Assembly: GCA_964412775.1 (NCBI GenBank)
Contig: CAYPPX010000004.1
Span: forward strand, 1 to 41,272
Reading direction: 5' to 3'
DNA from: an uncultured Pseudomonadales bacterium
GTDB lineage: Bacteria; Patescibacteriota; Microgenomatia; UBA1400; PJMF01
Length of the DNA stretch: 41,272 nt
Part shown: positions 3,987-32,838 of the stretch, piece by piece
Layout: every line of letters starts with the position of its first letter
How positions within the stretch are numbered: the stretch's first letter is position 1
The notes under the pieces: model-generated
Told to the model about the DNA's origin: nothing
Seen by the model: only the letters and a program-made list of their open reading frames with translations
Databases searched by the model: none
Position numbers and translations under genes: made by a program

Positions 3987-3992
3987 TTTGTT

Positions 3993-4217: not shown

Positions 4218-4239
4218 GTTAATTATAGAGAAAATAAAT

Positions 4240-19298: not shown

Positions 19299-20266
19299 CT
19301 TTGATTTTTCTTTTGTTCAATAATTTCTACGATTGTTTTCTTGATTGATTGGCTATCAAGACCATGTTTTTGCCATAGCTCAACTGGTTTACCAGATTCA
19401 CCAAAAGCATCGTTTAACCCTAAAAATTTATGTGGTAGGGCCAAGAGTTTACTAGTAATAATATCTTTGGCTAGTGCTTGAGTAATGGCTGCTGCGACTC
19501 CACCAATTAGTTGATGTTCTTCAATAGTAATGAAGGCTTGAGTTTTGTTTAGTGAGTCAATAATAGTAGTGGTATCGACTGGTTTAATAGTGTGAAGATT
19601 AATAATTTCTATTGAATAGTTATCTCTGAGTTGGTTTGCAGCTTGGTAAGCTTCAGCTAAAATTGGTCCTGAGCCAATGACGGTTAAGTCAGTCCCCAAA
19701 CTAATTAAATTAGCTTTACCTATTTCAAATGGACTAGATTCTTGGGTTAAACTCAAGGTTTTTTCTCTGGTTAGTCGTAAATAAGCTGGTTTTTTTAGTT
19801 GAGCTAGGGCAAAGACTGCTTTTTTAGTTTCATTAAAATCAACTGGGCTAACAACAGTCATATTAGGTAAAACTCTCATTAAAGCAATGTCTTCTAAACC
19901 CTGTTGAGTATAGCCATCTTCACCAACATTTAGGCCAGCATGACCTCCAACCACAATGACTGGTAAATCTGAGTAACAAACGGAATCTCGAATTTGTTCC
20001 CAGGTTCTTCCTGGACTGAAGGCGGCAAAGCTAGTAGCAAAAGGGATTTTACCCTCTAGTGCCAAGCCCGCTGCCACTCCGATCATGTTTTGTTCAGCAA
20101 TCCCTACTTGAATAAATCTACCTGGGAAAATTTCCTCAAATTTTTTTAATCTCAGAGATTCTGTTAGATCTGCAGTTAAAGCTACTACTTGTTGATTTGT
20201 TTCTGCCAATTCAACTATAGCCTCGCCGAAGCCATCTCTAGTACTTTTTAATTCTTGCTCGATCAT
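19295..20266 (-). CDS. tkt: Transketolase, C-terminal (pyrimidine-binding) subunit of a split enzyme
   Basis: 323 aa with FIQVGIAEQNMIGVAAGLA. Overlaps both neighbours by 4 nt. Confidence 0.9.
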   Translation of the reverse strand: MIEQELKSTRDGFGEAIVELAETNQQVVALTADLTESLRLKKFEEIFPGRFIQVGIAEQNMIGVAAGLALEGKIPFATSFAAFSPGRTWEQIRDSVCYSDLPVIVVGGHAGLNVGEDGYTQQGLEDIALMRVLPNMTVVSPVDFNETKKAVFALAQLKKPAYLRLTREKTLSLTQESSPFEIGKANLISLGTDLTVIGSGPILAEAYQAANQLRDNYSIEIINLHTIKPVDTTTIIDSLNKTQAFITIEEHQLIGGVAAAITQALAKDIITSKLLALPHKFLGLNDAFGESGKPVELWQKHGLDSQSIKKTIVEIIEQKKNQR

Positions 20267-21102
20267 GTTTGCTCTCCTAAAATTTCAGCCAAAGCTTGCT
20301 CAGTTTCTTTTTCATTAGGTGTTTTCCCATGCCAGTCAGCATTTCTTTCCATGAAAGACACTCCTTTACCGGCGATGGTATGACAAATAATAATTGATGG
20401 ATAGTCATTAGCTAAGTCTTTTTCAATGGCCCGTTGGAGTTGATAAAAATCATGTCCATTAGCTTCCAAAACATTCCAGCCAAAACTTTTTAGTTTGGCA
20501 AAAAGTGGATTAATAGACAGAGTATTTGCTATTTTTCCAGAGATTTGAATATCATTAGCATCGAGTAGGATTGTTAAATTACCAAGTTTATATTTAGTGG
20601 TTAATAGTAGAGCCTCCCAGGTTTGGCCTTCTTGGTACTCACCATCACTCATCGTACAAAAGACATGGTTGGGTTTCTTTTCCATAGCTAGGCCTAAAGC
20701 TAAGCCAACTGCTTGAGAAATACCTTGGGATAGTGATCCTGCAGAAATCTCCACTCCAGGCAAGCTGCCTCGTTGTGGGTGGCCTTGAAGTCTACTGCCA
20801 ATTTTTCTGAGGGTAGCCAATTCTTCCATAGGAAAATATCCGGCTTCAGCCAAAGTAGCATATAGAGCTGGGCAGTGATGGCCATTGGACATTAGTAAGT
20901 AATCACGTTCTGGCCAATATGGGTTTTCAGGATTATGTTGCAGTTGGTGAAAGTATAAATAAGTTAGAATATCGGTCATACTTAGTGAACCAGCTGGGTG
21001 ACCACTACCTGCTAGATGCAACATCCGAATAATATTGGCCCGAATATTTTTGGCAATTTCTTTTAGACGATAGTTATCTTCTCTTGTGAGTCGGGCAGAC
21101 AT
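20263..21102 (-). CDS. tkt: Transketolase, N-terminal (TPP-binding) subunit of a split enzyme
   Basis: 279 aa with GSGHPAGSLSMTDIL and SDGEYQEGQTWEA motifs. Confidence 0.9.
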   Translation of the reverse strand: MSARLTREDNYRLKEIAKNIRANIIRMLHLAGSGHPAGSLSMTDILTYLYFHQLQHNPENPYWPERDYLLMSNGHHCPALYATLAEAGYFPMEELATLRKIGSRLQGHPQRGSLPGVEISAGSLSQGISQAVGLALGLAMEKKPNHVFCTMSDGEYQEGQTWEALLLTTKYKLGNLTILLDANDIQISGKIANTLSINPLFAKLKSFGWNVLEANGHDFYQLQRAIEKDLANDYPSIIICHTIAGKGVSFMERNADWHGKTPNEKETEQALAEILGEQT

Positions 21103-21149
21103 ATGAGTAATATCTATTCTAGATTAATTTGGTTTTACAAGCAAAACCA

Positions 21150-24100
21150 TTAATTCAAAACTTCGGCTACTTTTTTGGCTAGTTCTTCTGACCAGGCAAC
21201 ACCATAAGGTAGTCTCATTTTTTCTGGTTTACCACCATTTGGGATGATAATCACAATGTTTTCTTGTCCAGGGTTAGCTTTGAGTAGTTGGCCGAGTTTT
21301 TGCAAAGTCTCTTTAGTTGTCTTTCTAGGGATAAAGATTTCTTGAGCATTTTTAGTATTTTCGTACTCAACCTCTTCTTGTTTTGGTACAGAAACTTTTT
21401 CAACAATTAATTTTACTTCGTCTTCTTGAATCTCTACTTTTGCTTTAACAAGGATTACGCCATCCTGAACAATTTTGTCTTTATGTTCTTCATAGGTTTT
21501 AGGGAAAAAGACAACTTCAGCTGACCCAGTGTTATCTTGTAGATTGCCAAAAGCCATTTCTGCTCCTGATTTTTTAGTTCTGACAACTTTAACTCTTGTT
21601 AGAATACCACCGAACAAGAAAACTTGGTCTTTGTGGAGTAATTGATCAATATCACCAATATTTTTATTTGATCTGCTTTGGACAGCAGACAGTTGATCAG
21701 CCAAAGGATGATCGGTAAGGTACATGCCTAAAAGTTCTTTTTCAAAAGAAAGTAGTTCTTTAGTTGGATATTCAGGAATTTGAGCAAAGGTATCCTTGAT
21801 TTCAGTAGAGTCGCTTGCTACATCAGCAAAGAGATTATCCTGTCCGTCAACTTCGGACTGAAATTGGCTGGCTGTTTGTCTAATATCATCCAGATTTTCT
21901 AACATGCTAGCACGAGTAGAAAATTGGTCCATCACGCCAACTTTAATCAAACTTTCAATCACTTTTTTATTAACTTTACGGCCATCAGTTTTGTATAAGA
22001 ATTCAGTGAAAGAATTAAATTTACCATTATTGGTTTTTCTAGTTTCTAAAATATTTTCAATGGCAGCCGTGCCAACATTTTTAATACTAGTTAAACTAAA
22101 ACGAATTGCTTTGCCTTCTAATGAATTTTTATTTTGTTCAATCGTAAAAGTATCATCTGATTTATTGATATCTGGTGGTAAAACAATAATGCCCATTTCT
22201 TTACAAGTTTCGACTGCCAAAGTGACTTTTTCATCACTATTCATTGAGTGAGAATTAGTTTCAACCGTCATTAAAGCAGCCATATATTCAATTGGGAAGT
22301 TTGCTTTCAAGTAGGCTGTTTGGTAAGAAATCATGGCATAACTAGCAGCATGAGCCTTATTAAAACCATAGTTTGCAAAAGCTTCAATAAAGCCCCAAAC
22401 TTTTTCTGCGACATCTTTTTTATAGCCTTTTTTGACTGATTCACTAATAAATCTAGATTTATTTTTGTCTAGAATTTTTTTCTTTTTCTTACCAATTGCT
22501 CGGCGGAGCATATCAGCTTCTCCGAGTGAGTAGCCTGCCATATGATGCACAATTTCTAAGACTTGCTCTTGGTAAACCATAATGCCATAGGTTTCACCCA
22601 GAATTTCTTTGAGTGATTCGTGAGGATAGACTACTTTTTCTGGATTATGTTTTCCTTCAATAAAGCGAGGGATTAGGTCCATTGGACCAGGACGATACAA
22701 GGCTAACATAGCAGTAATATCAGAAAATTGGTTGGGCTGAAGGTTTTTGGAAACTCTTCGCATACCACCAGACTCTAGCTGAAAGACACCAGAAGTTTCA
22801 CCAGATGAGAGCAACTCATAGGTTTTTTTGTCATCTAAAGGTAATTTATCTAATTCAATGTCTTTTTTTTGATATTTTTTGATTAAATTAACGGCTGTTT
22901 GTAGAGTTGAAAGATTTCTCAGACCCAAAAAGTCAAACTTCAATAGACCAATAGCATTGTCGTCAACATTACAGTCCAAAGAATACATATCATATTGAGT
23001 AATCATTTTTCCAGATCGGCTATCTCTTTGAATGGGGGTGTATTCTGGTAAAGATTTGTCTGCGATGATCACGGCTGCCGCATGCACACTACTATGACGA
23101 ATGGTGCCCTCAACTTTTTTGGCTAGGTCTAAGAGTTTTTTAAACTTAGGTTGCTTATAATATTCACCTAGTTCTGGAACGTTAGTGATAGCTGATTCCA
23201 AACTAGTTTTTTTACCAGGATCATTAGGTACTAATTTGGCAATTTTATCAGGATCTTCATATGGTAAGCCCAGTACACGTCCGATATCACGAATGGCTAC
23301 TCTAGCCTCCATTTTTCCAAAAGTAATCACATGCCCAACATGATCATGGCCATATTTCTCTGCTACATAAGCAATCACTTCTTCTCGACGATCATCAGCA
23401 AAGTCAATATCAATATCTGGTGGGGTCGGTCTTTCTGGATTTAGAAACCTTTCAAATGGCAAACCATGTTCTAATGGGTCAAGAGTTGTAATGTTAAGAC
23501 AATAAGAAACCAATGAACCAGCTGCCGAACCACGGCCAGGTCCAACCCCAATTCCCTGTTCTTTAGCCCAGTTAACAAAATCTTGAGTAATTAAAAAGTA
23601 GGTTGGGTAACCTTTTTTATTGATAATATCCATTTCATATTCGGCTCTTTTTTCTAACTCTGGAGTTATTTTGCCAAACTTTTTTTTCATCCCTTCATAA
23701 ACCATTTTTTTCAGCCAAGTTTCTGCCGTTTCTCCAGCCGGTAATGGATATTTAGGGAAAATTAGTTGACCAGTTGGGATCTCCAAGTTACAACGCTCAG
23801 CTAGTTTGACAGTATTTTTAATAGCTTCTGGATATTCAGCAAATAACTCTTCCATTTCAGCAGTCGACTTTAGATAAAAGTCAGGGTTGTCTTTCATCTT
23901 CATTCTTTTTTCATCAGCAATGAGTTTACGAGTTTGGACACAAAGTAGTGCGTCTTGGGCTTCAACTTCATCTTTTTCAATGTAATGCACATCATTAGTG
24001 GCTATTAATTCAAGTTTTAGTTCACGAGCAATTTTGACCAATTTTTTATTGAGGTCTTTGAGTTCGGGGATTGAAGGGTGATTTTGGAGTTCAATATAAA

Positions 24101-24608
24101 ATCGATCACCAAAAATTTGTTGATATTTTTTAAATTTTTCTAAAGCCTCAGTATCTTTGTCGACTCTAAGCAATTTGTTAAATGGGCTATTCATACAGCC
24201 ACTTAAGACAATTAAGCCTTCATTATATTTTTCTAAAGTCGCTTCATCGATTCTAGGTTTATAAGAAAAACCCTCAAGATTACCAATTGAAACTAACTTC
24301 ATTAAGTTTTTGTAGCCAGTAATATTTTGAGCCAAAACAGTTAGGTGTGCTTGATCTGATCCTGGTTTTATTTGTTTATCTTGAAGTGATTTTTGAGCTA
24401 GATAGAGTTCGCAGCCGATGATGGGTTTGATCCCTTCAGCTCGGCAAGCATTATAAAAAGCAATTGTGCCATACATCCCACCATGATCAGTAATAGCAAT
24501 TGCTTGTTGGCCATGTTCTTTAACCTTAGCCACTAATTTGGGAACTTTGGATAGACCATCCAGCATGGAATATTCAGTATGGACGTGTAAATGAACAAAA
24601 TCAGACAT
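21150..24608 (-). CDS. dnaE: DNA polymerase III alpha subunit
   Basis: PHP domain FVHLHVHTEYSMLDG; 1152 aa; polymerase core and a C-terminal OB region. Confidence 0.97.
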   Translation of the reverse strand: MSDFVHLHVHTEYSMLDGLSKVPKLVAKVKEHGQQAIAITDHGGMYGTIAFYNACRAEGIKPIIGCELYLAQKSLQDKQIKPGSDQAHLTVLAQNITGYKNLMKLVSIGNLEGFSYKPRIDEATLEKYNEGLIVLSGCMNSPFNKLLRVDKDTEALEKFKKYQQIFGDRFYIELQNHPSIPELKDLNKKLVKIARELKLELIATNDVHYIEKDEVEAQDALLCVQTRKLIADEKRMKMKDNPDFYLKSTAEMEELFAEYPEAIKNTVKLAERCNLEIPTGQLIFPKYPLPAGETAETWLKKMVYEGMKKKFGKITPELEKRAEYEMDIINKKGYPTYFLITQDFVNWAKEQGIGVGPGRGSAAGSLVSYCLNITTLDPLEHGLPFERFLNPERPTPPDIDIDFADDRREEVIAYVAEKYGHDHVGHVITFGKMEARVAIRDIGRVLGLPYEDPDKIAKLVPNDPGKKTSLESAITNVPELGEYYKQPKFKKLLDLAKKVEGTIRHSSVHAAAVIIADKSLPEYTPIQRDSRSGKMITQYDMYSLDCNVDDNAIGLLKFDFLGLRNLSTLQTAVNLIKKYQKKDIELDKLPLDDKKTYELLSSGETSGVFQLESGGMRRVSKNLQPNQFSDITAMLALYRPGPMDLIPRFIEGKHNPEKVVYPHESLKEILGETYGIMVYQEQVLEIVHHMAGYSLGEADMLRRAIGKKKKKILDKNKSRFISESVKKGYKKDVAEKVWGFIEAFANYGFNKAHAASYAMISYQTAYLKANFPIEYMAALMTVETNSHSMNSDEKVTLAVETCKEMGIIVLPPDINKSDDTFTIEQNKNSLEGKAIRFSLTSIKNVGTAAIENILETRKTNNGKFNSFTEFLYKTDGRKVNKKVIESLIKVGVMDQFSTRASMLENLDDIRQTASQFQSEVDGQDNLFADVASDSTEIKDTFAQIPEYPTKELLSFEKELLGMYLTDHPLADQLSAVQSRSNKNIGDIDQLLHKDQVFLFGGILTRVKVVRTKKSGAEMAFGNLQDNTGSAEVVFFPKTYEEHKDKIVQDGVILVKAKVEIQEDEVKLIVEKVSVPKQEEVEYENTKNAQEIFIPRKTTKETLQKLGQLLKANPGQENIVIIIPNGGKPEKMRLPYGVAWSEELAKKVAEVLN

Positions 24609-24634
24609 TATCCTCGACTATCCCACAGAAAAAA

Positions 24635-25978
24635 CTAGCTTTCAAGAGCTGTTTGGAGTTGTTGTCTAATTACTTGTGGATCAACTTTTTTGCCCAGATT
24701 TCTCATGACTTGACCCATGAGAAAACCAATGACTTGTTTTTGACCAGCTTTGTATTTAGCCACTGCATCACTATTCTCTGTGAATACTTGATTAATTATT
24801 GCTTGGAGTTGTTCGGTGTCGATAGTTTCTGTTTGGTGTAGTTCTTCAAAAGCAGCTACTACTTTTTCTGGTTGGTCAAATTCTTTGACCGAAATTTTTT
24901 TGTTTAAGTAGTCATTGATAAATAAGACCAAATCTAATTGTTTTGTTTTTAAAGTAGTTAGAACTTGTTCTAACCAAGCAATTAGTTGGTTAGATTCAAC
25001 ATTAGCTAGTTCAGTGACTTTTTCTAGTGGTAAGTTGAACCTTTTAGACCAAGTTTCGGCAATCTCCCATGGCATAACTGGAACAGTTTTCTGAATTTCG
25101 GCTAGATATTCGTCAGTGAAGTGTAGTGGTGGTAAATCTGGATCTGGAAAGTAACGATAATCTTCGGCTTCCTCTTTGGTTCGTTGTGAAAAAGTTTCTG
25201 CTTTGTTGGCATTCCAACCACGAGTCTCTTGAATTGGTATCTCACCTTTTTCCAAGATTTCAGCTTGTCTAGCTAATTCGTAATCAATCGCTGCTTCTAA
25301 AAATCTAAATGAATTAATATTTTTGACTTCAACTTTATAATTCGGTAAACCGGTTTCTCCTTTTTTTCTTAAGGAAATATTGGCTTCCAAACGCATTCCA
25401 CCCTGCTCCATGTCACAGTCAGCAACATCTAAAAATCTTAGGATTTGACGCAGTTTTTTACCATATTCTTTAGCTTGAGCACCACTCTTAATATCTGGTT
25501 CAGTTACTACTTCGACTAGAGGTACTCCACCACGATTAAAGTCAATTAAACTAACTTTTTTACCATCAAGACTAGTATGCATTAATTTACCAGTATCTTC
25601 TTCAAGGTGAATTCTAGTTAAACCAACTTTTCCTTGGGAAGTTTCGATAAAACCAGCATAACAAAATGGTAAATCATATTGACTAATCTGATAACCTTTA
25701 GCTAGGTCTGGGTAAAAATAGTGTTTACGATCAAATTTAGAAAATTTATTAATTTGACAATTAGTGGCAAGACCAATCTTGATGGTCCATTCAATAGCTT
25801 TTTTATTAGCCACTGGTAATCCACCGGGCATGCCTAAACAAACTGGACAGGTATAAATATTTGGTTTTTCGGCTCCAAATGGATCGTTTTTACAACCACA
25901 AAACATTTTTGAGCTAGTTCTTAGTTCAGCATGAGTTTCCATGCCTATGACTGCTTCATATTTATCTTGCCATTTCAT
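24635..25978 (-). CDS. gatB: Asp/Glu-tRNA(Asn/Gln) amidotransferase subunit B
   Basis: MKWQDKYEAVIGMETHAEL... Start placed at ATG 25978, which overlaps the gatA stop as ATGA. The track's extra 8 codons were rejected. Confidence 0.94.
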   Translation of the reverse strand: MKWQDKYEAVIGMETHAELRTSSKMFCGCKNDPFGAEKPNIYTCPVCLGMPGGLPVANKKAIEWTIKIGLATNCQINKFSKFDRKHYFYPDLAKGYQISQYDLPFCYAGFIETSQGKVGLTRIHLEEDTGKLMHTSLDGKKVSLIDFNRGGVPLVEVVTEPDIKSGAQAKEYGKKLRQILRFLDVADCDMEQGGMRLEANISLRKKGETGLPNYKVEVKNINSFRFLEAAIDYELARQAEILEKGEIPIQETRGWNANKAETFSQRTKEEAEDYRYFPDPDLPPLHFTDEYLAEIQKTVPVMPWEIAETWSKRFNLPLEKVTELANVESNQLIAWLEQVLTTLKTKQLDLVLFINDYLNKKISVKEFDQPEKVVAAFEELHQTETIDTEQLQAIINQVFTENSDAVAKYKAGQKQVIGFLMGQVMRNLGKKVDPQVIRQQLQTALES

Positions 25979-27366
25979 GACTGATTCCTCCAAGTATTCC
26001 AAGCTGTATTTTTTTCAAAAGCGTCTCCGACTTGAATTAGCAAATCTTCTCGCCACATTGGGGCCATGATGTTCATACCTAAAAATAAATTGGTTTTTTC
26101 ATCATGATAGTAAGGGACATTAAGCCCTGGTAGGCCAGCTAGAGAGCTAGCTTCAACTAACATATCTTCTAGTTCTCCAAACATCGCTTGACCTTCAGTC
26201 ACACCAATTTTTTTGGCGAAACCAGGTGAAGTTGGAGCTACTAGCAAGTCATATTTTTTAAACAAGTTATTGAGGTCATTAATATAAAGGGTTCTGACTT
26301 TCTGAGCTAGTTCGTAGTATTTTTCGGCATAACCCTTGCTTAAAGTGTAGGTACCAAGCATCTGTCTTCTTTTAGCCTCGGCCCCAAAGAATGAGCGATC
26401 ATTTTTGTAGCGAACACCACTATAGCGGGCCAAGTTACTACTGACTTCACCACGCTGAACCACGGTATAAACACCAATGGCATAACGAGGATCCATTGCC
26501 TGAGCTTTTTCAACAATTGCACCCAATTTTTCTAAAACTTTAAGTTGTTCCATGAGCTTTTCGTTAGCAAATTCTATACCAGCAATATCTTGATAAATCA
26601 CTCCAATTTTTAAACCTTTAATTGAAGTATTAAGTGATTGAGTTAGGTCAGGTGGAGTTTGGGCTGAGCTAGTTCCATCTAGGGGATCATGTCCAGCAAT
26701 CAGATTAAACATAATGGCTGCATCTTCAACCGTCTTAGTGATTGGGCCAGGGCTGTCTGTAGATGAGGCCATTGAGGCGACCCCATAGCGACTAACTCTG
26801 CCATAGGTTGGTTTTAGTCCAACGGTGCCACACCAAGCAGATGGTTGTCTAATTGAGCCAGCAGTTTCGCTACCAATAGCTGTAATAGTCAGATCTGCAG
26901 CAATGGCGGCTGCACTACCACCAGATGATCCTCCTGGTAAATGATCAGTATTTCTGGGGTTTAAGGTGCGACCAAAGTCACTGGTTTCTGTTGAAGAACC
27001 ATGAGCCCAAGCGTCCATATTAGTTTTACCAAGAATTACTCCACCAGCTTGTTTGATTTTTTTGGTAACAGTTGATTCAAATTGTGGAATGAAATTTTCT
27101 AGTACTTTTGACGAAGCAGTGGTTCTAAAATCTCTGGTACAAAAGTTATCTTTAACAGCAACTGGTATGCCAGCTAAGGGTGTGTTTAAAAGTTTTTCTG
27201 CTTGATCCAAAGCTTGTTCATCTAAAGTTAAATAAATATTCAACTTTTTGTTTTGTTGAGTAATAGCTTGATTAATATCTTGATAAAGTTCTCGGTGAGA
27301 AAACTTTTTATTTTTTAAATCTCTGATAGTTTCTGCTAAAGTAAGTTTGTTTAACATTTTAGTCAA
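25975..27366 (-). CDS. gatA: Glutamyl-tRNA(Gln) amidotransferase subunit A
   Basis: Amidase signature GGSSGGSAAAIA; 463 aa. Confidence 0.96.
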   Translation of the reverse strand: MTKMLNKLTLAETIRDLKNKKFSHRELYQDINQAITQQNKKLNIYLTLDEQALDQAEKLLNTPLAGIPVAVKDNFCTRDFRTTASSKVLENFIPQFESTVTKKIKQAGGVILGKTNMDAWAHGSSTETSDFGRTLNPRNTDHLPGGSSGGSAAAIAADLTITAIGSETAGSIRQPSAWCGTVGLKPTYGRVSRYGVASMASSTDSPGPITKTVEDAAIMFNLIAGHDPLDGTSSAQTPPDLTQSLNTSIKGLKIGVIYQDIAGIEFANEKLMEQLKVLEKLGAIVEKAQAMDPRYAIGVYTVVQRGEVSSNLARYSGVRYKNDRSFFGAEAKRRQMLGTYTLSKGYAEKYYELAQKVRTLYINDLNNLFKKYDLLVAPTSPGFAKKIGVTEGQAMFGELEDMLVEASSLAGLPGLNVPYYHDEKTNLFLGMNIMAPMWREDLLIQVGDAFEKNTAWNTWRNQS

Positions 27367-27634
27367 TCTTTTTTTCTGTTTTTAAAATTTCCATCAGTTT
27401 TTTGCGGTTTTTAATGAAAGCAATCACACTATAGCTTAGTGAAAAAATAAAGATTACCAAATAAACTAAACCAATGGAAACTGAAAATTTATCAGCAAAA
27501 CCGGTCATGTTTAAGAAAATAAAAGTACTAAAGACAATAATTTGTAGCAAAATTGCTTCTAGAGCAGTGGCTATTCTTTCTTGTCTAAGTTGATCAATTA
27601 AAAATTTTTTATCTTCAATTGTTAAACTAGGCAT
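27359..27634 (-). CDS. Small two-TM membrane protein embedded between gatC and gatA
   Basis: 91-aa ORF with two hydrophobic helices (LEAILLQIIVFSTFIFL, IGLVYLVIFIFSLSYSVIAFI). Overlaps the gatC stop and the gatA start by 8 nt each. Confidence 0.6.
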   Translation of the reverse strand: MPSLTIEDKKFLIDQLRQERIATALEAILLQIIVFSTFIFLNMTGFADKFSVSIGLVYLVIFIFSLSYSVIAFIKNRKKLMEILKTEKKID

Positions 27635-27941
27635 CTTTTTCCTCCAAAATTCTAGGTACTACAAAAAATCCATTGTGAGTTTGGTGAGCATTAGTGAGAG
27701 CTTCTTGCTGAGTGAACATAGTTTCTTGATTAATTTGATCCTCACGCCAAACATTTTCTAGACCAGTTACTTGGTGAGTGGTTGATATATTTTGAACATC
27801 CAGAGAATTTAATTCATCAACCACAGCTAGGGTTTCTTCGAACCCAGTGGCTAGTTCTTGCTTTTCTTTTTCTGAAACAGGGATGTTGGCTAACTGAGCG
27901 ATGTGGGCAACGGTTTGTGGAGTAACAGTAGTTTTTTTCAC
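27627..27941 (-). CDS. gatC: Asp/Glu-tRNA(Asn/Gln) amidotransferase subunit C
   Basis: 104 aa. VAHIAQLANIPVSEKE... is typical of GatC. GTG start. Confidence 0.88.
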   Translation of the reverse strand: MKKTTVTPQTVAHIAQLANIPVSEKEKQELATGFEETLAVVDELNSLDVQNISTTHQVTGLENVWREDQINQETMFTQQEALTNAHQTHNGFFVVPRILEEKDA

Positions 27942-27989
27942 ATCTGGAAGTATAGCAGAACCAAGGATTTTTTTCAGATGCTAATTTAC

Positions 27990-28904
27990 TTAAATAGTTA
28001 GTTTTTTTAGAGCTTTAATTCTCTCTGTCAAAGGGGGATGAGTGGCAAATAAATTAGCAAACACCCCCACTCCACCATGCAGGTTTTTGAGTGGATTGGT
28101 GATGTATAAGTGAGCAGTTGCCTTATTAGCAGCTTCTAATGGTTCACGATCATTACCAAGTTTTTCTAAAGCACTAATCATGCCAGCTGGATTTTTGGTC
28201 ATGGCTACAGCTGATGAGTCAGCTAAAAACTCTCTTTTTCTGGAGATTGCCAATTGAATGAGCTGGGCAATCAGTGGTGAAAGTAAGGCTAGAACCATAC
28301 CAACAACAAAGAAAATAGCTTGAAGTTGGTTGTCACCCTCTCGGTTATCTCTGCGTCTGTTACCTCCCCAGTAACTCATTCGTAACACCCAATCGGCCAA
28401 TAATGAAATAAAGCCTACTAAGATGGTAACGAGTGACATTAAACGAATGTCATAGTTTTTGATATGAGCTAATTCGTGAGCAATTACGCCTTCTATTTCC
28501 CTACGGTTCATTCTGGCTAATAGTCCAGTGGTGGCACAGACAACCGCATGCTCTGGATCGCGACCAGTGGCAAAAGCATTCATGGCTGAATCTTCAATCA
28601 CGTAGAGTTTAGGCAAAGGGAGTTTTTGACTGTGGCTTAGATTTTCAGCGACAGTATAAAAATCAAAAAACTCTGCGCGATTAGCTTCTCTGGCACCAGA
28701 TAAGGTCAAGATAATTTTGTCAGAAAAATAGTAACTAGCAAAACTAGACATGCCAGCGAATATGAGAGCAAAGCCCACTAAATCCAAGCCATAACCAAAC
28801 CCTTCAACTATTAAATAAGTAGCCACAGCAATAAAGCTGATAAAGCCAGCAATCACTAACCAAGATTTAGTTTTGTTGCTTGCAACCAATTGATAATGGG
28901 TCAT
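27990..28904 (-). CDS. htpX: Membrane zinc metalloprotease HtpX
   Basis: HELAHIKN (HExxH); four TM segments; C-terminal FATHPPLTERI. Confidence 0.94.
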   Translation of the reverse strand: MTHYQLVASNKTKSWLVIAGFISFIAVATYLIVEGFGYGLDLVGFALIFAGMSSFASYYFSDKIILTLSGAREANRAEFFDFYTVAENLSHSQKLPLPKLYVIEDSAMNAFATGRDPEHAVVCATTGLLARMNRREIEGVIAHELAHIKNYDIRLMSLVTILVGFISLLADWVLRMSYWGGNRRRDNREGDNQLQAIFFVVGMVLALLSPLIAQLIQLAISRKREFLADSSAVAMTKNPAGMISALEKLGNDREPLEAANKATAHLYITNPLKNLHGGVGVFANLFATHPPLTERIKALKKLTI

Positions 28905-28908
28905 ATCT

Positions 28909-29490
28909 TTAATCTAAAGAAACTTTATGGTCTTTAGTTTCTGCATCACTCACTGACATGTGAGCACCAGTACTAGCGGTTTCCAGACCTTTTTCAGCCT
29001 TAAAACCGAATAAACCAGCCACTAAGTTAGATGGAAAAACCACCAATTTTTGGTTAAAGGTTTGGGCGAGGTCAATTACGGTTCTTCTGGCGTAGGTCAA
29101 CTTGTCAGCCGTATCAGTTAGTTCATCCATAAATTTACTGACAGTGCCATCAGCTTTGATTTCTGGATTATCTTCGACTGCAACTTGGATTTTTGGGATT
29201 AATGCTTGCACCGAAGCTAGGGCTTTTTCTAGATCAGCTGGTTTACCAGTTTTATCGGCTGTTTCAGCAGCTTTTCTGGCATCAGTTAACATCTGGAAAA
29301 TACCCTTTTCGTGTTTGAGATAGCCTTTGACAGCAGTTTCCAAGTTTGGAATTAAACTAGCTTGTCTTTTAAGCTGGTTACCAATCTCTTGAATACTAGC
29401 TTGAATTTGAGTTTTCAAGGTTTGTAAAGAGTTGTATAAACCGACTACATAAAAGAAAGCGACGGCAGCAATAACAAGTAAAAATAACAT
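28909..29490 (-). CDS. lemA: LemA family membrane protein
   Basis: N-terminal TM then the YNSLQTLKTQIQASIQEIGNQLKRQASLIPNL pattern typical of LemA. The lemA-htpX pairing is common. Confidence 0.88.
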   Translation of the reverse strand: MLFLLVIAAVAFFYVVGLYNSLQTLKTQIQASIQEIGNQLKRQASLIPNLETAVKGYLKHEKGIFQMLTDARKAAETADKTGKPADLEKALASVQALIPKIQVAVEDNPEIKADGTVSKFMDELTDTADKLTYARRTVIDLAQTFNQKLVVFPSNLVAGLFGFKAEKGLETASTGAHMSVSDAETKDHKVSLD

Positions 29491-29566
29491 AATAAGTCCT
29501 TTGTTTATTAGACTACTGGTGATTAGTATAGCAAATATGGCAAGTTTTTTTCGGTAATATCTTTAC

Positions 29567-29594
29567 TTACAAAAATAACTTTATTTGCTATAAT
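29567..29594 (+). promoter_or_regulatory. Putative tRNA-Asp promoter (extended -10)
   Basis: ttacaa (29567-29572), 16-nt spacer, tgc-tataat (29586-29594). Confidence 0.45.
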
Positions 29595-29626
29595 TGCTTC
29601 TCTTGATCTTTCAAATTAAATAAAGT

Positions 29627-29699
29627 GGGCTCGTGGTGTAGTGGTTAACATGCTTCCCTGTCACGGAAGAGATCGCCAGTTCGATCCTGGTCGAGCTCG
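29627..29699 (+). tRNA. tRNA-Asp (anticodon GUC), CCA not encoded
   Basis: Folded by hand. Acceptor GGGCTCG/CGAGCTC with a G2-U71 wobble; D stem GTGT/ACAT; anticodon stem CTTCC/GGAAG with loop CTGTCAC; T stem GCCAG/CTGGT with loop TTCGATC; discriminator G73. 73 nt. Confidence 0.9.
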
Positions 29700-29700
29700 C
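29683..29700 (+). repeat. Direct repeat copy 1 (tRNA-Asp T-loop to 3' end), att-like
   Basis: gatcctggtcgagctcgc is identical to 29875..29892. Confidence 0.95.
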
Positions 29701-29745
29701 AGCTATAAAAAATCTCCAGAATGGAGATTTTTTTGTAGCTGCGAG
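29696..29745 (+). terminator. 50-nt near-perfect palindrome/terminator overlapping the tRNA 3' end
   Basis: ctcgcagcta-t-aaaaaatctcca-gaa-tggagatttttt-tg-tagctgcgag. About 22 bp with one small internal loop and a T-run in the 3' arm. Confidence 0.75.
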
Positions 29746-29874
29746 TCTCAGAACATGATTAACTTTGGTTCACCGCCAAGTTTGGCGAGCTAGTTTACTT
29801 TAATTAAGCAATAATTCGCCAAACCTGGGTAATGCATGCGAAGCGAGCCTAAGTTGCAGGCGAGCGAAGTCGTA
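29701..29874 (+). mobile_element. Possible miniature or decayed tRNA-integrated element (174 bp between att-like repeats)
   Basis: Bounded by the exact 18-bp direct repeat of the tRNA 3' end. There is no integrase and no ORF. Confidence 0.25.
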
Positions 29875-29892
29875 GATCCTGGTCGAGCTCGC
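29875..29892 (+). repeat. Direct repeat copy 2 (displaced tRNA-Asp 3' fragment, followed by CA completing G-CCA)
   Basis: gatcctggtcgagctcgc is identical to 29683..29700. Here the next bases give ...CTCG-CCA. Confidence 0.95.
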
Positions 29893-29900
29893 CAGATAAT

Positions 29901-29927
29901 AGACCTTAAATAAGGTCTATTTTTTTA
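29901..29927 (+). terminator. Intrinsic terminator
   Basis: agacctta/taaggtct stem followed by a-ttttttt. Confidence 0.75.
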
Positions 29928-29950
29928 ACTTATTTTTAGTCCTATAATAT

Positions 29951-29979
29951 TTGACAATTAGCTTAAATTGATTTATAAT
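29951..29979 (+). promoter_or_regulatory. Consensus sigma70-type promoter of micro-ORF cassette A
   Basis: TTGACA (29951-29956), exactly 17 nt, TATAAT (29974-29979). Preceded by cctataata and followed by gctatt, as in cassette B. Confidence 0.7.
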
Positions 29980-29985
29980 TTAAGG

Positions 29986-30141
29986 CTATTAAAGCTTAGT
30001 ACATGGCGTACTTATGTTTTAAAAACAGCAAGTAATTAATTTATTTGCTTTCTTTTAGAATAAATGGCATTTAATTTAGGTATTAGTAAGACTGATATTT
30101 AAATTGAATGCCATTATCATTCTGAAAGGAGGTGAAATGTA
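29986..30141 (+). promoter_or_regulatory. Structured 5' leader of cassette A
   Basis: 16-bp stem 30063-30078 / 30100-30115 (one G-U) with a 21-nt loop. Extendable with bulges to ctttc(30047-30051)/gaaag (30124-30128), abutting the SD aaggaggtga (30126-30135). Confidence 0.45.
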
Positions 30142-30270
30142 ATGGCTACTTGCGAAGAACATAGCTGGTACACTAAGTCATATTTTCCGCATAGATTTTT
30201 GTTCTGGCGGTATATTTGGCAAAAGTGTACTAAATGCAATGCTTGGAGAATTAAACTATACTCCAAGTAA
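30142..30270 (+). CDS. Micro-ORF A, 42 aa: MATCEEHSWYTKSYFPHRFLFWRYIWQKCTKCNAWRIKLYSK (Cys/His and aromatic rich)
   Basis: Hand translation. Perfect SD aaggaggtga 9 nt upstream of the ATG, own consensus promoter and own terminator. CxxH...CxxC spacing. Below the 60-aa cutoff of the ORF track. Confidence 0.5.
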   Translation: MATCEEHSWYTKSYFPHRFLFWRYIWQKCTKCNAWRIKLYSK

Positions 30271-30306
30271 AAAAAGAGCCGTCTCGGAAGGGACGGCTTT
30301 TCTGTT
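30271..30306 (+). terminator. Intrinsic terminator of cassette A
   Basis: agccgtc (30277-30283) / gacggct (30292-30298), then tttctgtt. Confidence 0.75.
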
Positions 30307-30331
30307 CAATGCTTATTATCCTATAATAATA

Positions 30332-30360
30332 TTGACAAAATAGACATATTTTGATATAAT
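30332..30360 (+). promoter_or_regulatory. Consensus sigma70-type promoter of micro-ORF cassette B
   Basis: TTGACA (30332-30337), exactly 17 nt, TGa-TATAAT (30352-30360). The cctataata box lies at 30320-30328. Confidence 0.7.
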
Positions 30361-30366
30361 TAGTGC

Positions 30367-30580
30367 TATTGATTTAGTGAAATAGGTCAAATTGCTTGAC
30401 TAGATTTTCTACTGAACAATAACAAACTCTTGTTCTTTAAAAAATCCTTTGTTTGTTTAGTATATGTCTTCTTTTGTTAGACAGATAACTTGTCTTGGTT
30501 ATTCATAAGAGTAACTAAAACAAGTTATCTGCTCAGACAGAGATAACGACACATTCTTTACAACGAAGGAGGTGAATAAC
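30367..30580 (+). promoter_or_regulatory. Structured ~210-nt 5' leader of cassette B with mutually exclusive helices
   Basis: 12-bp stem 30482-30493 / 30520-30531 enclosing the gttattc/gagtaac hairpin. gttatct (30524-30530) can alternatively pair with agataac (30541-30547). SD aaggaggtga is at 30566-30575. Confidence 0.45.
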
Positions 30581-30700
30581 ATGGCAATCTACATGATTGT
30601 GATGGAATGGTGCCCGAAAGGACACTGGCACATCATGGTTTACCGCTTATGCCCTGAGCATGGGCGGCACCTCGTTGCCCTCGGCATTCTGCCGATGTAG
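30581..30700 (+). CDS. Micro-ORF B, 39 aa: MAIYMIVMEWCPKGHWHIMVYRLCPEHGRHLVALGILPM (Cys/His rich, GC-rich codons)
   Basis: Hand translation. Perfect SD 8 nt upstream of the ATG, own consensus promoter and terminator. CPxxH...CPEH spacing. About 54% G+C by hand count in an AT-rich genome. Confidence 0.5.
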   Translation: MAIYMIVMEWCPKGHWHIMVYRLCPEHGRHLVALGILPM

Positions 30701-30725
30701 CCGATTCACCCTGACCAAGAGACTT

Positions 30726-30760
30726 GTGCCGCTTCGTAAAGAAGCGGCACATTTCGTTTA
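30726..30760. terminator. Intrinsic terminator of cassette B (also downstream of the convergent NUDIX gene)
   Basis: gtgccgcttc-gtaaa-gaagcggcac (30726-30750), then atttcgttta. Confidence 0.75.
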
Positions 30761-30761
30761 T

Positions 30762-31286
30762 TTAGCCATTCTGATCAATTGTTTCACTTAACACTCTAAC
30801 TAGCTGAGTGTTTTTCCACTCACTATTATTATAGATAATGCCAGGTTTATTATTTAAAACGTGATCAAAGTAATATTTGACCGGTTGAAAAACATTTTCC
30901 AAGTTTTTAGCTTTATTTATCTCTACCCAATGAGCTTCACCTTCAGTAACTGCTGGTTTAATTTTGGGTTCTTCTGAGAGTTCTATATAAAATGAAAATG
31001 CAATATAAATTTCTTGTCTATCTAGATGATGGTGAAAAGCGACTACTTTAAGTTTTATTTCATTTGGTTTGATGGTAACACCAGTTTCTTCTTTGACTTC
31101 TCTGATAGCAGAAGCTAATGGTTCTTCTCCTTCATCAATATGACCACCAGGAATAGACCAAAAACCTGGAAATTTTTCTTTGGTTTCACTGCGCTTAAAC
31201 ATCAGCAGTTTATTTTGGTGAACAATATAAACCTCAGCCACAAAGATAGGCTGATCGACTTCATGGAGTTTTTTGATAGCTGTCAT
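30762..31286 (-). CDS. NUDIX hydrolase
   Basis: Nudix box GGHIDEGEEPLASAIREVKEETG. Confidence 0.88.
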   Translation of the reverse strand: MTAIKKLHEVDQPIFVAEVYIVHQNKLLMFKRSETKEKFPGFWSIPGGHIDEGEEPLASAIREVKEETGVTIKPNEIKLKVVAFHHHLDRQEIYIAFSFYIELSEEPKIKPAVTEGEAHWVEINKAKNLENVFQPVKYYFDHVLNNKPGIIYNNSEWKNTQLVRVLSETIDQNG

Positions 31287-31304
31287 TATGACAGTATAGG
31301 CTTT

Positions 31305-31964
31305 TTAGATTAGTTTATTAACTCCAAAAGTTTCTTTGACCACAAAACCAGTGGGGTTTTTTTCTAGCACAATATAAGCAGTATTATCGATACTGCCATG
31401 TGGTAGTTCTGGGTAATCTGCCCAGTTTAGGTAAATTAAAAAGGTTCTCATGGCAGCTCCATGAGTAACAATTAGATTAGTTTTCTCATTAGTTAAATTA
31501 GCTGTTTTGTCAAAAAATTCTAAAAACCGATCAATAATTGATTGGTCGGTTTCCATATCCAAAACTTGGTGTTTAAAACGTTCTGTTTTTGGCAAATTAT
31601 CCCTTAGTTCTAAGAGTTCTTTTAATTCCTGATGAAAATCGCTTATTTTTCGGCCCTCATAACTGCCTAGGTACATTTCTCTTAAGAGTTTGTCTGCTTG
31701 GACTGTTAAATTATCTCTGGTTTTAGTAATTATTTGGGCTGTTTTGTAGGCTCTTTTGAGATCTGAAGAAAAAACGTTATCAAATTTTATATCACCTAAT
31801 TTTTTGCTTACCATTTTTGCTTGTTCAATACCATTCTCATTTAGTTCAATATCAATATGGCCTTGAATGATTTTTTGGGCGTTGTAGGGAGTTTCACCGT
31901 GTCTAACTAGATAAAATAAGGTTGGTGTTGTCATAACAAGTTTTGATTTTACCATTTTTGCCAT
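31305..31964 (-). CDS. Histidine phosphatase (phosphoglycerate mutase) family protein
   Basis: LVRHGETPYN catalytic RHG motif and a later THGAAMR. The true start may be an internal Met (e.g. 31934). Confidence 0.85.
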   Translation of the reverse strand: MAKMVKSKLVMTTPTLFYLVRHGETPYNAQKIIQGHIDIELNENGIEQAKMVSKKLGDIKFDNVFSSDLKRAYKTAQIITKTRDNLTVQADKLLREMYLGSYEGRKISDFHQELKELLELRDNLPKTERFKHQVLDMETDQSIIDRFLEFFDKTANLTNEKTNLIVTHGAAMRTFLIYLNWADYPELPHGSIDNTAYIVLEKNPTGFVVKETFGVNKLI

Positions 31965-31979
31965 TGATTATTATCTCTG

Positions 31980-31999
31980 GATCTTGGTATAACAAGATC
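31980..31999. promoter_or_regulatory. 7-6-7 palindrome centred on a TGgTATAAC extended -10 in a divergent intergenic region
   Basis: gatcttg-gtataa-caagatc, read directly. Confidence 0.4.
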
Positions 32000-32028
32000 T
32001 CAACAGAAAAAGAAAGGAAGTAATTACA

Positions 32029-32505
32029 ATGTCTGATGATCAAATCAAAAGCGCTGAACAATTGGCGAAGGAGGCTCTAGCAGAAGCCGATGCTGAAGTT
32101 GAGAGTTCAAACAAAGTCGCTGAAACTTTGGGAACATTGCAAAACTTAATTGAGCGTCACGCGCTGAATTTAGAGGAAATTCGCAAACAAATTAAAGAAA
32201 CTAATGAAAGTTTAAGGAGTGTGTTTGAAAATGACACAACTCTTTCTACTGCTCAGGAAGAAGCCCAAGCAGTGACTAGTAAAGTTAAGGAAAGAAGAAG
32301 TCAGTTACAATCTGATCCTCAAGTGACTTCCTTAAAAATCAAGGTTGGGGAACTTAAGGAGCAACAAAAAGAACTAGAAGAAACTTTGAGTAATCATTTG
32401 ATTAATTATCATACTTTGACCAACTCTAAAAGTTTTGATACCAGTGATGGTGATCAATGGGATTTTTCTATTAGAGCCAAAATTAGACCACGTGGTAAAA
32501 AATAA
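32029..32505 (+). CDS. Hypothetical coiled-coil protein
   Basis: 158-aa ORF with SD gaaaggaag. Charged heptad-like sequence and a basic C-terminus. Followed by a strong terminator. Confidence 0.7.
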   Translation: MSDDQIKSAEQLAKEALAEADAEVESSNKVAETLGTLQNLIERHALNLEEIRKQIKETNESLRSVFENDTTLSTAQEEAQAVTSKVKERRSQLQSDPQVTSLKIKVGELKEQQKELEETLSNHLINYHTLTNSKSFDTSDGDQWDFSIRAKIRPRGKK

Positions 32506-32525
32506 CCACTGACTAAAAGTTGAAA

Positions 32526-32560
32526 CAAAAAACCCCACTTTTCAGTGGGGTTTATTTTTT
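32526..32560. terminator. Bidirectional intrinsic terminator between convergent genes
   Basis: aaaaaa-ccccact-tttc-agtgggg-tttatttttt. Confidence 0.85.
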
Positions 32561-32574
32561 AATTTCAAAAAAGT

Positions 32575-32838
32575 TTAGGTCTTACCTAACTTTTGGTTGA
32601 TCCGAGCCAAAGCTGCTGGAGAAACGTTTTTCATTTTCTTCAAGGAGCGAGCTCTTCTTTTTAAACGGTTATCGTTAGCAGTTTTTTCAGCCTTAATTTT
32701 TGAAGGTTTTCTGAAGTAACGTCTATCTTTAACAATTTGCACGACACCAGTAGCAGCGACAGCTTTTTTGAATTTACGAATCAAATCATTAGTCGATTCG
32801 CTTTTCTTAGCTTTAATTACGATTGCCATGTTACTCAC
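32575..32838 (-). CDS. rpsU: 30S ribosomal protein S21
   Basis: LIRKFKKAVAATGVVQIVKDRRYFRKPSKIKAEK matches the S21 pattern. Very basic, 87 aa. SD is gaggaggtga. Confidence 0.85.
   Translation of the reverse strand: MSNMAIVIKAKKSESTNDLIRKFKKAVAATGVVQIVKDRRYFRKPSKIKAEKTANDNRLKRRARSLKKMKNVSPAALARINQKLGKT

Follow-up and report, generated by a model that had tools for sequence, protein, structure and literature searches.

Structured leader RNAs with a BoxA motif precede predicted micro-protein genes in a variable segment beside tRNA-Asp in Pacebacteria/Microgenomates-like bacteria

The 41,272-nt stretch analysed here (contig CAYPPX010000004.1 of assembly GCA_964412775.1, referred to as the window) contained a single gap of more than 1 kb without an open reading frame (ORF) of at least 60 amino acids (aa) on either strand. 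This gap, the island, spanned 29491–30761 (1271 nt), and the next largest gap was 230 nt. The flanking genes from 18378 to 31964 were all located on the minus strand. On its plus strand the island held a tRNA-Asp, an exact 18-bp copy of the 3' end of this tRNA and two tandem cassettes, each composed of a promoter, a leader, a Shine–Dalgarno (SD) sequence, a short ORF (pep1 in cassette 1, pep2 in cassette 2) and a terminator (Table 1). A first-pass annotation of the sequence had singled out the ORF-free gap, the strand bias and each of these features, and all of them were recovered. Two further points emerged: the leaders are homologous and form a single family, and BoxA, the predicted site of NusB and S10, is matched perfectly in cassette 2.

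The window is core chromosome of a bacterium of the candidate phyla radiation (CPR) that is Pacebacteria/Microgenomates-like. The closest relatives of its LemA were from Pacebacteria/Microgenomates metagenome-assembled genomes (L002, L003, L004 and L005, with 91%, 89%, 85% and 78% identity, respectively). Eighty LemA-anchored loci (L numbers) were used for comparison with the island by BLAST, and L097 was added through a look-up of LemA homologues. LemA and tRNA-Asp were divergent neighbours in most of the 80 loci, and the spacing from tRNA-Asp to tRNA-Gly across relatives ranged from 56 to 4950 nt. Compared with these loci, the island was a mosaic. L002 contained the 'mid' segment of the island, only the terminator of cassette 1 and only the 3' untranslated region (3'UTR) and terminator of cassette 2. 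L003 contained cassette 1, followed by an ABC-2 transporter. L004 had three tandem cassettes after tRNA-Asp, encoding a pep1 homologue, a 173-aa macro-like protein and a 32-aa peptide containing CPLCGEFH; L005 had the mid segment and a NUDIX gene and no cassette. Further cassettes were present in L026, L030, L063 and L041, and two in L097. Cassettes of the second type adjoined His_Phos/NUDIX genes in the window, L004 and L097; L002 kept a remnant of such a cassette. The island is a variable segment downstream of tRNA-Asp that holds two kinds of element, the cassettes and a mini-element that includes the tRNA 3'-end copy. A comparison of this interval between related genomes had been proposed on first pass; the leaders and pep1 proved to be conserved in relatives, pep2 shared a motif with positional orthologues, and the cassettes were variably present.

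The cassettes of all relatives shared a common build, with a (T)CCTATAA box, a near-consensus promoter, a leader of 155–215 nt, a strong SD, an ORF and a terminator. The box was located 2–5 nt before the −35 element, and only 10 such sites occurred in 793 kb, nearly all beside tRNA-Asp. The TTGACA-17-TATAAT promoters of the two window cassettes matched the consensus at 12 of 12 positions and were the only 12/12 sites in 28500–32500; the total number of promoter-like sites was not above that of shuffled sequences. Terminator-like sites were found 10 times versus 2.4 expected, those in the island at 29898–29921, 30277–30298 and 30725–30751. The two leaders measured ~156 nt (cassette 1) and ~214 nt (cassette 2) and had in common the 11-nt repeat AAGGAGGTGAA, which includes the SD, at 30126 and 30566. 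A conserved tail, TTTCGTTTAT, followed the terminator in six cassettes. The start of pep2 was best placed at the ATG at 30581 rather than the GTG at 30572. A minimal start-stop ORF (ATG TAA; ATGTAATG, 30137–30144) at optimal distance from the SD overlapped the pep1 start, and the same arrangement was present in L003. Unlike integron cassettes, the units carried their own promoters and intrinsic terminators, and the window was devoid of an integrase (a dedicated attC model was not applied).

Table 1. Positions of features in the island of the window (position 1 is the first base of the window)
Feature	Position	Strand	Details
Promoter-like site of tRNA-Asp	29566–29594	+	CTTACA-17-TATAAT, TG-extended, 10/12
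tRNA-Asp (GTC)	29627–29700	+	ARAGORN; Rfam 60.5 bits
Extended tRNA terminator hairpin	29696–29745	+	CTCGC, the final 5 nt of the tRNA, pairs with inverted GCGAG at the left end of the mini-element
Mini-element body	29746–29874	+	Hairpin 29776–29828; GCGAAGC mini-hairpin motif
Copy of tRNA-Asp 3' end	29875–29892	+	Exact direct copy, T-loop to last base (att-like)
Intrinsic terminator after repeat copy	29898–29928	+	10-bp stem and T run
Cassette 1 promoter	29940–29979	+	Box TCCTATAAT (29940–29948); TTGACA-17-TATAAT (29951–29979)
Cassette 1 leader	29986–30141	+	Short form without BoxA, ~156 nt
Cassette 1 leader, 5' hairpin	29998–30012	+	Loop AUGGC
Cassette 1 leader, anti-SD tract	30044–30061	+	
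Cassette 1 leader, 25-bp hairpin	30063–30115	+	
Cassette 1 SD	30126–30135	+	AAGGAGGTGA
Start-stop	30137–30142	+	ATGTAA, overlaps the pep1 ATG
pep1	30142–30270	+	42 aa, MATCEEHSWYTKSYFPHRFLFWRYIWQKCTKCNAWRIKLYSK
Cassette 1 terminator	30277–30306	+	Readable as minus-strand terminator too
Cassette 2 promoter	30319–30360	+	Box TCCTATAAT (30319–30327); TTGACA-17-TATAAT with TG (30332–30360)
Cassette 2 leader, 5' domain	30367–30421	+	Long hairpin, inner stem 30385–30390/30396–30401, conserved loop AUUGC (boxB-like position)
BoxA	30432–30442	+	GTTCTTTAAAA, inside conserved motif CTCTTGTTCTTTAA (30427–30440)
Cassette 2 anti-SD tract	30445–30451	+	UCCUUUG, pairs with AAGGAG of the SD in predicted folds
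Cassette 2 long hairpin	30472–30538	+	Near-perfect, core arms 30482–30504/30509–30531, RNase III-substrate size
Cassette 2 SD	30566–30575	+	AAGGAGGTGA
pep2	30581–30700	+	39 aa, MAIYMIVMEWCPKGHWHIMVYRLCPEHGRHLVALGILPM
Cassette 2 3'UTR fold-back	30704–30721	+	AUUCACC (30704–30710) pairs GGUGAAU after the SD; GACCAAGAG (30713–30721) pairs leader CUCUUGUUC at the BoxA 5' edge
Cassette 2 terminator	30725–30760	+	11-bp stem and tail TTTCGTTTAT; abuts the stop codon of the convergent NUDIX gene

The variable segment that follows tRNA-Asp yielded 11 homologous leaders in eight related Microgenomates/Pacebacteria genomes (two in the window, three in L004, two in L097 and one each in L003, L026, L030 and L063). 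All 11 were recovered (E = 3e-15 to 4e-4) by a covariance model that spans the initial ~93 positions of the leader, and no other convincing match appeared in the related loci (~860 kb), in 100 viral loci or elsewhere in the window. A match to the model at 32511–32601 in the window (E = 0.42) was rejected as a mere bidirectional terminator beside the S21 gene, and the one marginal match among the viral loci (L187) was the promoter of a phage tRNA cluster. The 5' domain of the family was a long hairpin with a strongly covarying inner stem and the loop (A)UUGC. In the alignment of the 5' hairpin, 89% of the cells were paired and nine of 11 pairs were changed on both sides, versus 41–53% paired cells in slid controls. 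None of 500 shuffles reached the observed percentage of pairing, number of both-side changes or covariation score, and two reached the number of further pair types; RNAalifold agreed with the covariation of this hairpin. The hairpin-rich character of the leaders noted on first pass was confirmed by their folding stability relative to shuffles (z = −8.4 for cassette 1, z = −7.2 for cassette 2). Much of these z-scores was due to a near-perfect hairpin of 20–27 bp, located between the BoxA position and the SD, the sequence of which differed between cassettes. L026 and L030 shared 81% identity over the 250 nt upstream of the ORF and only 57% in the ORF, with saturated synonymous sites, so that the leader is the more constrained part. 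With Rfam, only the tRNA exceeded the gathering threshold in the island and 12 related loci; a search of the island at E ≤ 10 added chance matches to microRNAs and small RNAs. The leaders are well supported as conserved structured RNAs with covariation that form an undescribed RNA family.

Motif CTTGYTCTTTAAWAA was an exact match to the BoxA consensus GYTCTTTAANA, the site of NusB/NusE as given by Baniulyte et al. (PMC5725501), in eight of the 11 leaders and at the same aligned position. These were the leaders of window cassette 2, L026 and L063, all three of L004 and both of L097. As read by eye, the eight sequences varied only at the degenerate positions Y and N. In L030, the motif had a one-base insertion. 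BoxA began ~66 nt past the predicted transcription start, ~30 nt 3' of the inner stem of the 5' hairpin and 10 nt past the whole 5' domain. A further exact BoxA was observed in L010 (3516–3526, minus strand), 1.25 kb downstream of tRNA-Asp, in an intergenic leader with the order promoter, hairpin, BoxA, hairpin and ORF. This leader had a different sequence and was not recognized by the covariance model, so the diversity of BoxA leaders at the locus may exceed that of the 11.

In every minimum-energy fold, the SD (AAGGAG) was paired with an upstream CU tract, which was UCCUUUG in cassette 2 and GCUUUCUUUU in cassette 1. Full-length folds of window cassette 2, L097_Y and L004_C predicted additional pairing of GGUGAR, located after the SD, with YUCACC in the 3'UTR, with a compensatory change in L004_C (GGUGAG with CUCACC). 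The 5' edge of BoxA was predicted to pair with AGCAAG/CCAAGAG in the 3'UTR. The duplex between leader and 3'UTR was better than with shuffled 3'UTRs in five of 11 cassettes: L063 and L097_X (0/500 each, with 22 and 18 pairs, respectively), L004_B (0.016), L004_C (0.022) and window cassette 2 (0.034).

The first-pass annotation had interpreted the micro-ORFs as genes, and this coding status is well supported by comparison of their sequences. Orthologues of pep1 were present in L003 (93–95% identical) and in cassette A of L004 (58%). Between the window and L003, 31 codons were identical, eight differed synonymously and two non-synonymously, with nine of 13 base differences at third positions, and the nucleotide identity of the ORF was 90% versus 72% over the 250 nt upstream; by these counts, pep1 is judged to be under purifying selection. 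The L004 homologue retained C4, H7, WYTKSYFP and KCTKC. For pep2, no BLAST-level homologue was found. The peptide shared VY.LCP.[CH]G..H.LA with the products of the positionally orthologous cassettes of L097 and L004 ([LI]CPx[CH]G-x1-2-H), which were located directly before His_Phos/NUDIX and had the same 3'UTR and terminator. C24, P25, G28 and H30 were invariant in this family, with C or H at position 27.

pep1 is a cationic, aromatic, Cys-bearing peptide, for which a single-sequence AlphaFold model predicted two amphipathic helices at moderate confidence (mean predicted local distance difference test, pLDDT, 73.5). The single-sequence AlphaFold2 model of pep2 was a three-stranded beta-meander with CP-x-x-[CH] turns (pLDDT 94.8). 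In a structure search, the pep2 model matched nothing beyond generic beta-sheets (best E = 0.26; the match to laterosporulin, at E ~0.6, was not significant), and the pep1 model had no structural match. No relative of pep1 was found among 5.8 billion clusters or, in an exhaustive search, 1.84 billion representatives; a metagenome scan returned only the L004 organism again, and exact look-ups of pep1 and pep2 found nothing on record. Pfam and PADLOC searches with pep1, pep2 and five other cargo proteins yielded nothing above threshold. C(P)XCG knuckles occur in small zinc-finger micro-proteins of a single domain, for example in haloarchaea. The pep2 family resembles them in its CPxCG-x2-H motif (CPFCGEIH in L097_Y, CPLCGEFH in L004_C), in the CPKGH and CPEHG of pep2 and in size (32–42 aa). 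Unlike these proteins, the pep2 family conserves only three ligand positions, the second Cys is replaced by His in pep2, and pep2 has no sequence or fold match to solved proteins. The zinc-knuckle-like character suggested on first pass is borne out in part only, with three conserved ligand positions in the pep2 family; in the pep1 family, C4, H7, C29 and C32 were conserved and the Cys–His spacing varied.

The small ORFs evolve fast and are not the same from cassette to cassette. Other cargo of the cassettes comprised a peptide family of 30–31 aa (L026 and L030), a 62-aa hydrophilic protein (L097_X), a 107-aa membrane protein (L063) and the 173-aa protein of L004, whose weak match to Macro (E = 0.014) was below the cut-off. 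L041 encoded a 54-aa protein with a double C-x8-C-x2-C motif behind a different, short leader. The GC content of the ORF was higher than that of the leader (0.26–0.33) in 10 of the 11 cassettes measured, with a maximum of 0.54; the exception was L041 (leader 0.45, ORF 0.44). For pep2, the values were 0.54 and 0.30, respectively. Three cargo ORFs (30581–30700 in the window, L063:2620–2940 and L004:4545–5066) had GC contents of 0.45–0.54, compared with 0.26–0.33 for leaders and 0.37 for the genome, as if the coding parts were foreign or under other constraints. In L003, an ABC-2 transporter (ATPase and permease; 3580–5315, minus strand of the locus) followed the pep1 cassette directly and on the same strand, and might serve peptide export or immunity; the window had no such genes.

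The second kind of element in the island copied the 3' end of tRNA-Asp. The 18-bp repeat GATCCTGGTCGAGCTCGC occurred exactly twice, at 29683–29700 and 29875–29892 (18/18), and no shuffle matched this even with three mismatches; a third copy was absent from the window at the same tolerance. The repeats bounded ~190 bp (29683–29892). The ~150-nt segment between them folded with z = −3.8. It had been described as a tRNA-like RNA on first pass, which was not borne out, as ARAGORN detected one tRNA only and the Rfam tRNA model, even at E ≤ 10, matched nothing but 29627–29699. An orthologue of the body was present in L002 (97% over 114 nt), and diverged relatives followed tRNA-Asp in L005, L040, L030 and L016 and tRNA-Gly(CCC) in L009, L030 and L041. 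Further elements linked to tRNA-Asp were observed in L076 and L075. The att-like duplication noted earlier was thus not only real but a member of a recurrent family of 124–192 bp elements. At eight loci, and in degenerate form at L016, L075 and the tRNA-Asp of L030, tRNA-Asp or tRNA-Gly(CCC) was followed by a terminator, a body and a copy of the tRNA 3' end. The terminator stem was extended by the inverted last 5–6 tRNA bases, the body measured 100–170 nt and the copy began in the T-loop. The copy period was 124–192 nt in eight cases and never larger, and no distal copy was present within ±6 kb in any locus. No such element was found after 31 tRNA-Thr(CGT) genes. The elements linked to tRNA-Asp and tRNA-Gly shared a core of GTTC..CG, a hairpin, TARTRC and a mini-hairpin, often GCGAAGC, a sequence that forms a very stable DNA mini-hairpin. 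Despite diverged bodies, the copy always equalled the local tRNA: at the one position that differed between the tRNAs of the window and L002 (L002:5793–5866 and its copy), tRNA and copy both had A in the former and both had G in the latter. This suggests concerted evolution of the copies with the tRNA by gene conversion, repeated recombination or selection. Both cassettes lay beyond the distal repeat, starting at 29940; cassettes occurred without the repeat element in L003, L004, L026, L063 and L097, and the element without intact cassettes in L002 and L005. The mini-element is not the carrier of the cassettes.

By analogy with known BoxA leaders, we consider it somewhat probable that the two cassettes are autonomous micro-gene units with an rrn/lambda-nut-like leader that would confer Nus-dependent protection from Rho, translational gating or both. 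This mechanism was proposed on account of the hairpin-BoxA order, the long structured untranslated leader and the complementarity between leader and 3' region that flanks the cargo. The strong near-consensus sigma-70 promoter would fire constitutively, and NusB/S10 would bind the emerging BoxA and build a Nus complex on RNA polymerase. This complex would carry the polymerase in a Rho-resistant state through ~200 nt of untranslated leader to the intrinsic terminator, and it may in addition repress translation of the message, as happens at lambda N and suhB. Access of the ribosome to the SD would be blocked by the anti-SD tract and, in cassette 2, by the 3'UTR fold-back, and translation of the micro-protein would be licensed by refolding or by RNase cleavage of the long hairpin or the fold-back stem. 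In cassette 1, with BoxA degenerate or absent, only the local anti-SD hairpin would operate.

A hairpin followed by BoxA is the order found in rrn leaders. Like the rrn boxB-boxA-boxC leader and BoxA mRNAs (the suhB and S10 leaders of E. coli, and BoxA ahead of CRISPR arrays), the cassettes combine a strong promoter with an exact BoxA after a hairpin in the predicted transcribed leader and long untranslated RNA behind it, and the leader next to BoxA is predicted to pair 3' of the cargo in the manner of the 16S processing stem. The cassettes differ in driving orphan ORFs of 30–173 aa rather than rRNA or Nus/ribosomal genes, in the distance from BoxA to the SD (110–125 nt versus 6 nt at suhB), in the conserved AUUGC loop of the 5' hairpin, which is not a feature of rrn boxB, and in that cassette 1 is without BoxA and Nus binding is predicted from sequence. 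In phage lambda, nutL precedes N by ~200 nt; the RNA between them is highly structured and sensitive to RNase III, and translation of N is repressed by Nus factors (PMC5725501). The lambda pL-nutL-N region shares with the cassettes a strong promoter, a nut site (BoxA and hairpin), a structured leader of ~200 nt with an RNase III-type hairpin and the SD of a small protein (PMC5725501). In lambda, however, BoxA precedes boxB, whereas the hairpin precedes BoxA in the cassettes, which have no phage context, encode products unrelated to N and each end at their own terminator, so that downstream antitermination is not their evident purpose.

Several observations weigh against the Nus-dependent reading or narrow it. 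The set is small, with 11 leaders from eight genomes and three of them from one genome, and an alignment made with a covariance model leans towards the structure of the model. The short-form leaders of window cassette 1 and L003 lacked BoxA, which is therefore not obligatory for the leader family. As a single motif, BoxA was not significant in the AT-rich window (GC content 0.366; two found versus 0.74 expected), so the argument is carried by its conserved position. BoxA was partly paired in the predicted folds, whereas NusB/S10 require a single-stranded site, and neither nusB nor rho was located within the window. The probability of SD pairing (0.56–0.96) was not above the shuffle means (0.63–0.84) obtained with the same U-rich composition; SD sequestration was dropped as a statistical claim after this control and kept as a structural description, which makes masking plausible only. 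The fold-back was significant in only five of 11 cassettes and modest in the window (p ~0.03). Transcription starts, processing and translation are all predicted.

The small ORFs (30–42 aa) with their own strong promoters and terminators also resemble type I toxin-antitoxin systems such as hok/sok and aapA1/IsoA1, a likeness raised on first pass. The cassettes would then encode self-locked toxin mRNAs that are activated by 3' processing, with an RNA antitoxin encoded elsewhere or missed. The long and highly structured 5'UTRs, the SD pairing predicted in every fold, the 5'–3' fold-back with a compensatory change and the tandem paralogous copies that vary in presence between relatives fit this logic, which is documented for aapA1/IsoA1 (PMC5416894). 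What stood of the likeness was the resemblance in SD masking and fold-back, although the masking was not above the composition control. No antisense promoter of at least 10/12 was conserved in position or otherwise evident in 12 cassettes, even if a trans-encoded RNA antitoxin is conceivable. As read from their sequences, pep1, pep2 and their relatives had no uncharged stretch of ~18 or more residues and no membrane-helix-length hydrophobic segment, pep2 was modelled as a beta-meander, and the same leader drives macro-like (173 aa), membrane (107 aa) and hydrophilic (62 aa) proteins that are not toxin-like. Since the conserved single-stranded motif is also better explained as BoxA, a type I system appears unlikely. 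As a candidate antitoxin, the mid RNA was rejected: its loop AAGCAAT complements the hairpin loop AUUGCUU of cassette 2 and not that of cassette 1, and most genomes with cassettes are without the element. A ligand- or temperature-sensing cis-regulator that opens the SD, with an incidental likeness to BoxA, would account for a conserved and covarying leader, for a U-rich tract that pairs with the SD as in fourU/ROSE thermometers and for the alternative pairings around the base of the long hairpin in L026 and L004_A. Such a riboswitch or RNA thermometer is nevertheless improbable, as the leaders have no conserved multi-helix junction or pocket-like core beyond the AUUGC loop and BoxA, match no Rfam family and precede functionally unrelated orphans, unlike riboswitch regulons, and as the motif varies exactly at the degenerate positions of BoxA.

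The first-pass annotation had favoured a different origin, with the whole island as cargo or remnant of an integrative element targeting tRNA-Asp. This would agree with the exact 18-bp direct repeat that starts in the T-loop, the hypervariability of the locus between relatives, the GC content of the pep2 ORF (0.54 versus 0.37 in the window) and the contigs of three other assemblies that break at this tRNA-Asp, within ~165 nt of LemA. Against it speak the repeats themselves, which enclose ~190 bp with both cassettes outside, and the occurrence of cassettes in five loci without the repeat element. The absence of an integrase, which had been noted on first pass, was confirmed for the window: no integrase, recombinase, transposase or phage gene was detected by Pfam among all ORFs of at least 90 aa, a handful of which had no Pfam match. 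Cassettes of the second type were moreover positionally orthologous across lineages with 85–91% identical LemA. A phage origin was rejected after three scans of viral contigs (with the promoter box and two leader motifs) gave only unrelated matches. The island as integrative cargo is accordingly a reading to which we attach very little weight. For the mini-element by itself, our first choice, held tentatively and at slightly less than an even chance, is an att-type product of T-loop-directed site-specific recombination, either a miniature or cis-mobilizable element or a scar. This reading is based on the T-loop boundary, which is that of integrase att sites; the T-loop is the classical crossover place of T-loop integrases (PMC1762012). 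Integrative elements of this type (mycobacteriophage Ms6 at tRNA-Ala, the Dehalococcoides ssrA islands) likewise have a direct repeat of the tRNA 3' end from the T-loop, an intact tRNA on the left, a displaced copy on the right and a variable hot-spot locus. In contrast to them, the mini-element has only ~130 bp between the tRNA terminator and the copy and no integrase, and its uniform small size, the core common to Asp and Gly copies and the concerted evolution of copy and tRNA fit a decaying scar poorly. The same features would suit a functional small RNA gene (29746–29892), a tRNA-end mimic, processing signal or guide-like RNA on a conserved scaffold. In favour of this alternative, the core is shared while the 3' segment always equals the local tRNA and covaries with it between the orthologous elements of the window and L002, different sequences take the place of the hairpin, none of the elements exceeded the uniform size of 124–192 nt, and the segment folds at z = −3.8 with its own terminator after the copy. 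A small RNA gene is still only possible, with the evidence tending against it: between the tRNA terminator and the element there is neither room for nor sign of a promoter, the segment is not tRNA-like by ARAGORN or Rfam, its repeat boundary in the T-loop is an att-site feature, close relatives that keep cassettes lack it, and the ~10 copies are too few and divergent for a formal covariation test. A degenerate tRNA duplicate was discarded, with only weak local alignments to the 5' part of the tRNA, and a tandem duplication was ruled out by differing flanks.

A more speculative reading, which we regard as doubtful, joins both kinds of element. The fixed flanks of the cassettes (promoter, boxB-BoxA leader, fold-back 3'UTR and terminator) could form an integrase-free 'socket' at a tRNA-Asp hot spot, in which unrelated, GC-richer orphan ORFs would be swapped by recombination. 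The cassettes would then serve CPR bacteria as a Nus-dependent platform for small effector proteins, and the mini-element would be the active partner, as a trans-mobilized mini-integrative element or a tRNA-matched RNA. To our knowledge, the regulatory RNAs and small proteins of CPR/Patescibacteria are almost unexplored, and the instances of BoxA/Nus control described so far concern rRNA, a few Nus/ribosomal genes, lambda N and CRISPR arrays. If the Nus-dependent reading of the cassettes is true, such control would extend to autonomous micro-protein genes in a deep bacterial lineage. The covariance model of the leader together with BoxA provides a search model for micro-proteins that the predicted-protein catalogues searched do not contain. 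Acquisition and exchange of small genes in these reduced genomes can be approached through the variable tRNA-Asp locus and its tRNA-3'-end-copying elements.

The minus-strand genes that flank the island were housekeeping genes: LDH, transketolase, DnaE, GatCAB, an HtpX-like M48 protease and LemA on one side, and NUDIX and His_Phos on the other. All Pfam-matching ORFs of at least 90 aa in the window belonged to this category, including, besides those named, ATP synthase, GreA, LysRS, SerRS, SecA, Fpg, HIT and BipA. The S21 ribosomal protein gene (83 aa, below this size limit) was located at 32584–32832 on the minus strand. Two NUDIX genes were present in the window (30762–31286 and 17831–18325). 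The one abutting cassette 2 was also found in L005 and was absent at that place in L002, L003, L004 and L097; given this patchy presence, it is also a variable part of the locus. Contigs L001, L094, L095 and L096, from four independent assemblies of this and sister lineages, ended at tRNA-Asp, ~160–170 nt upstream of LemA, which would be expected of a downstream region that is polymorphic in populations. Between gatC and gatA, a 91-aa ORF without Pfam match (27359–27634, minus strand) was observed, the position of which was kept in L094–L100.

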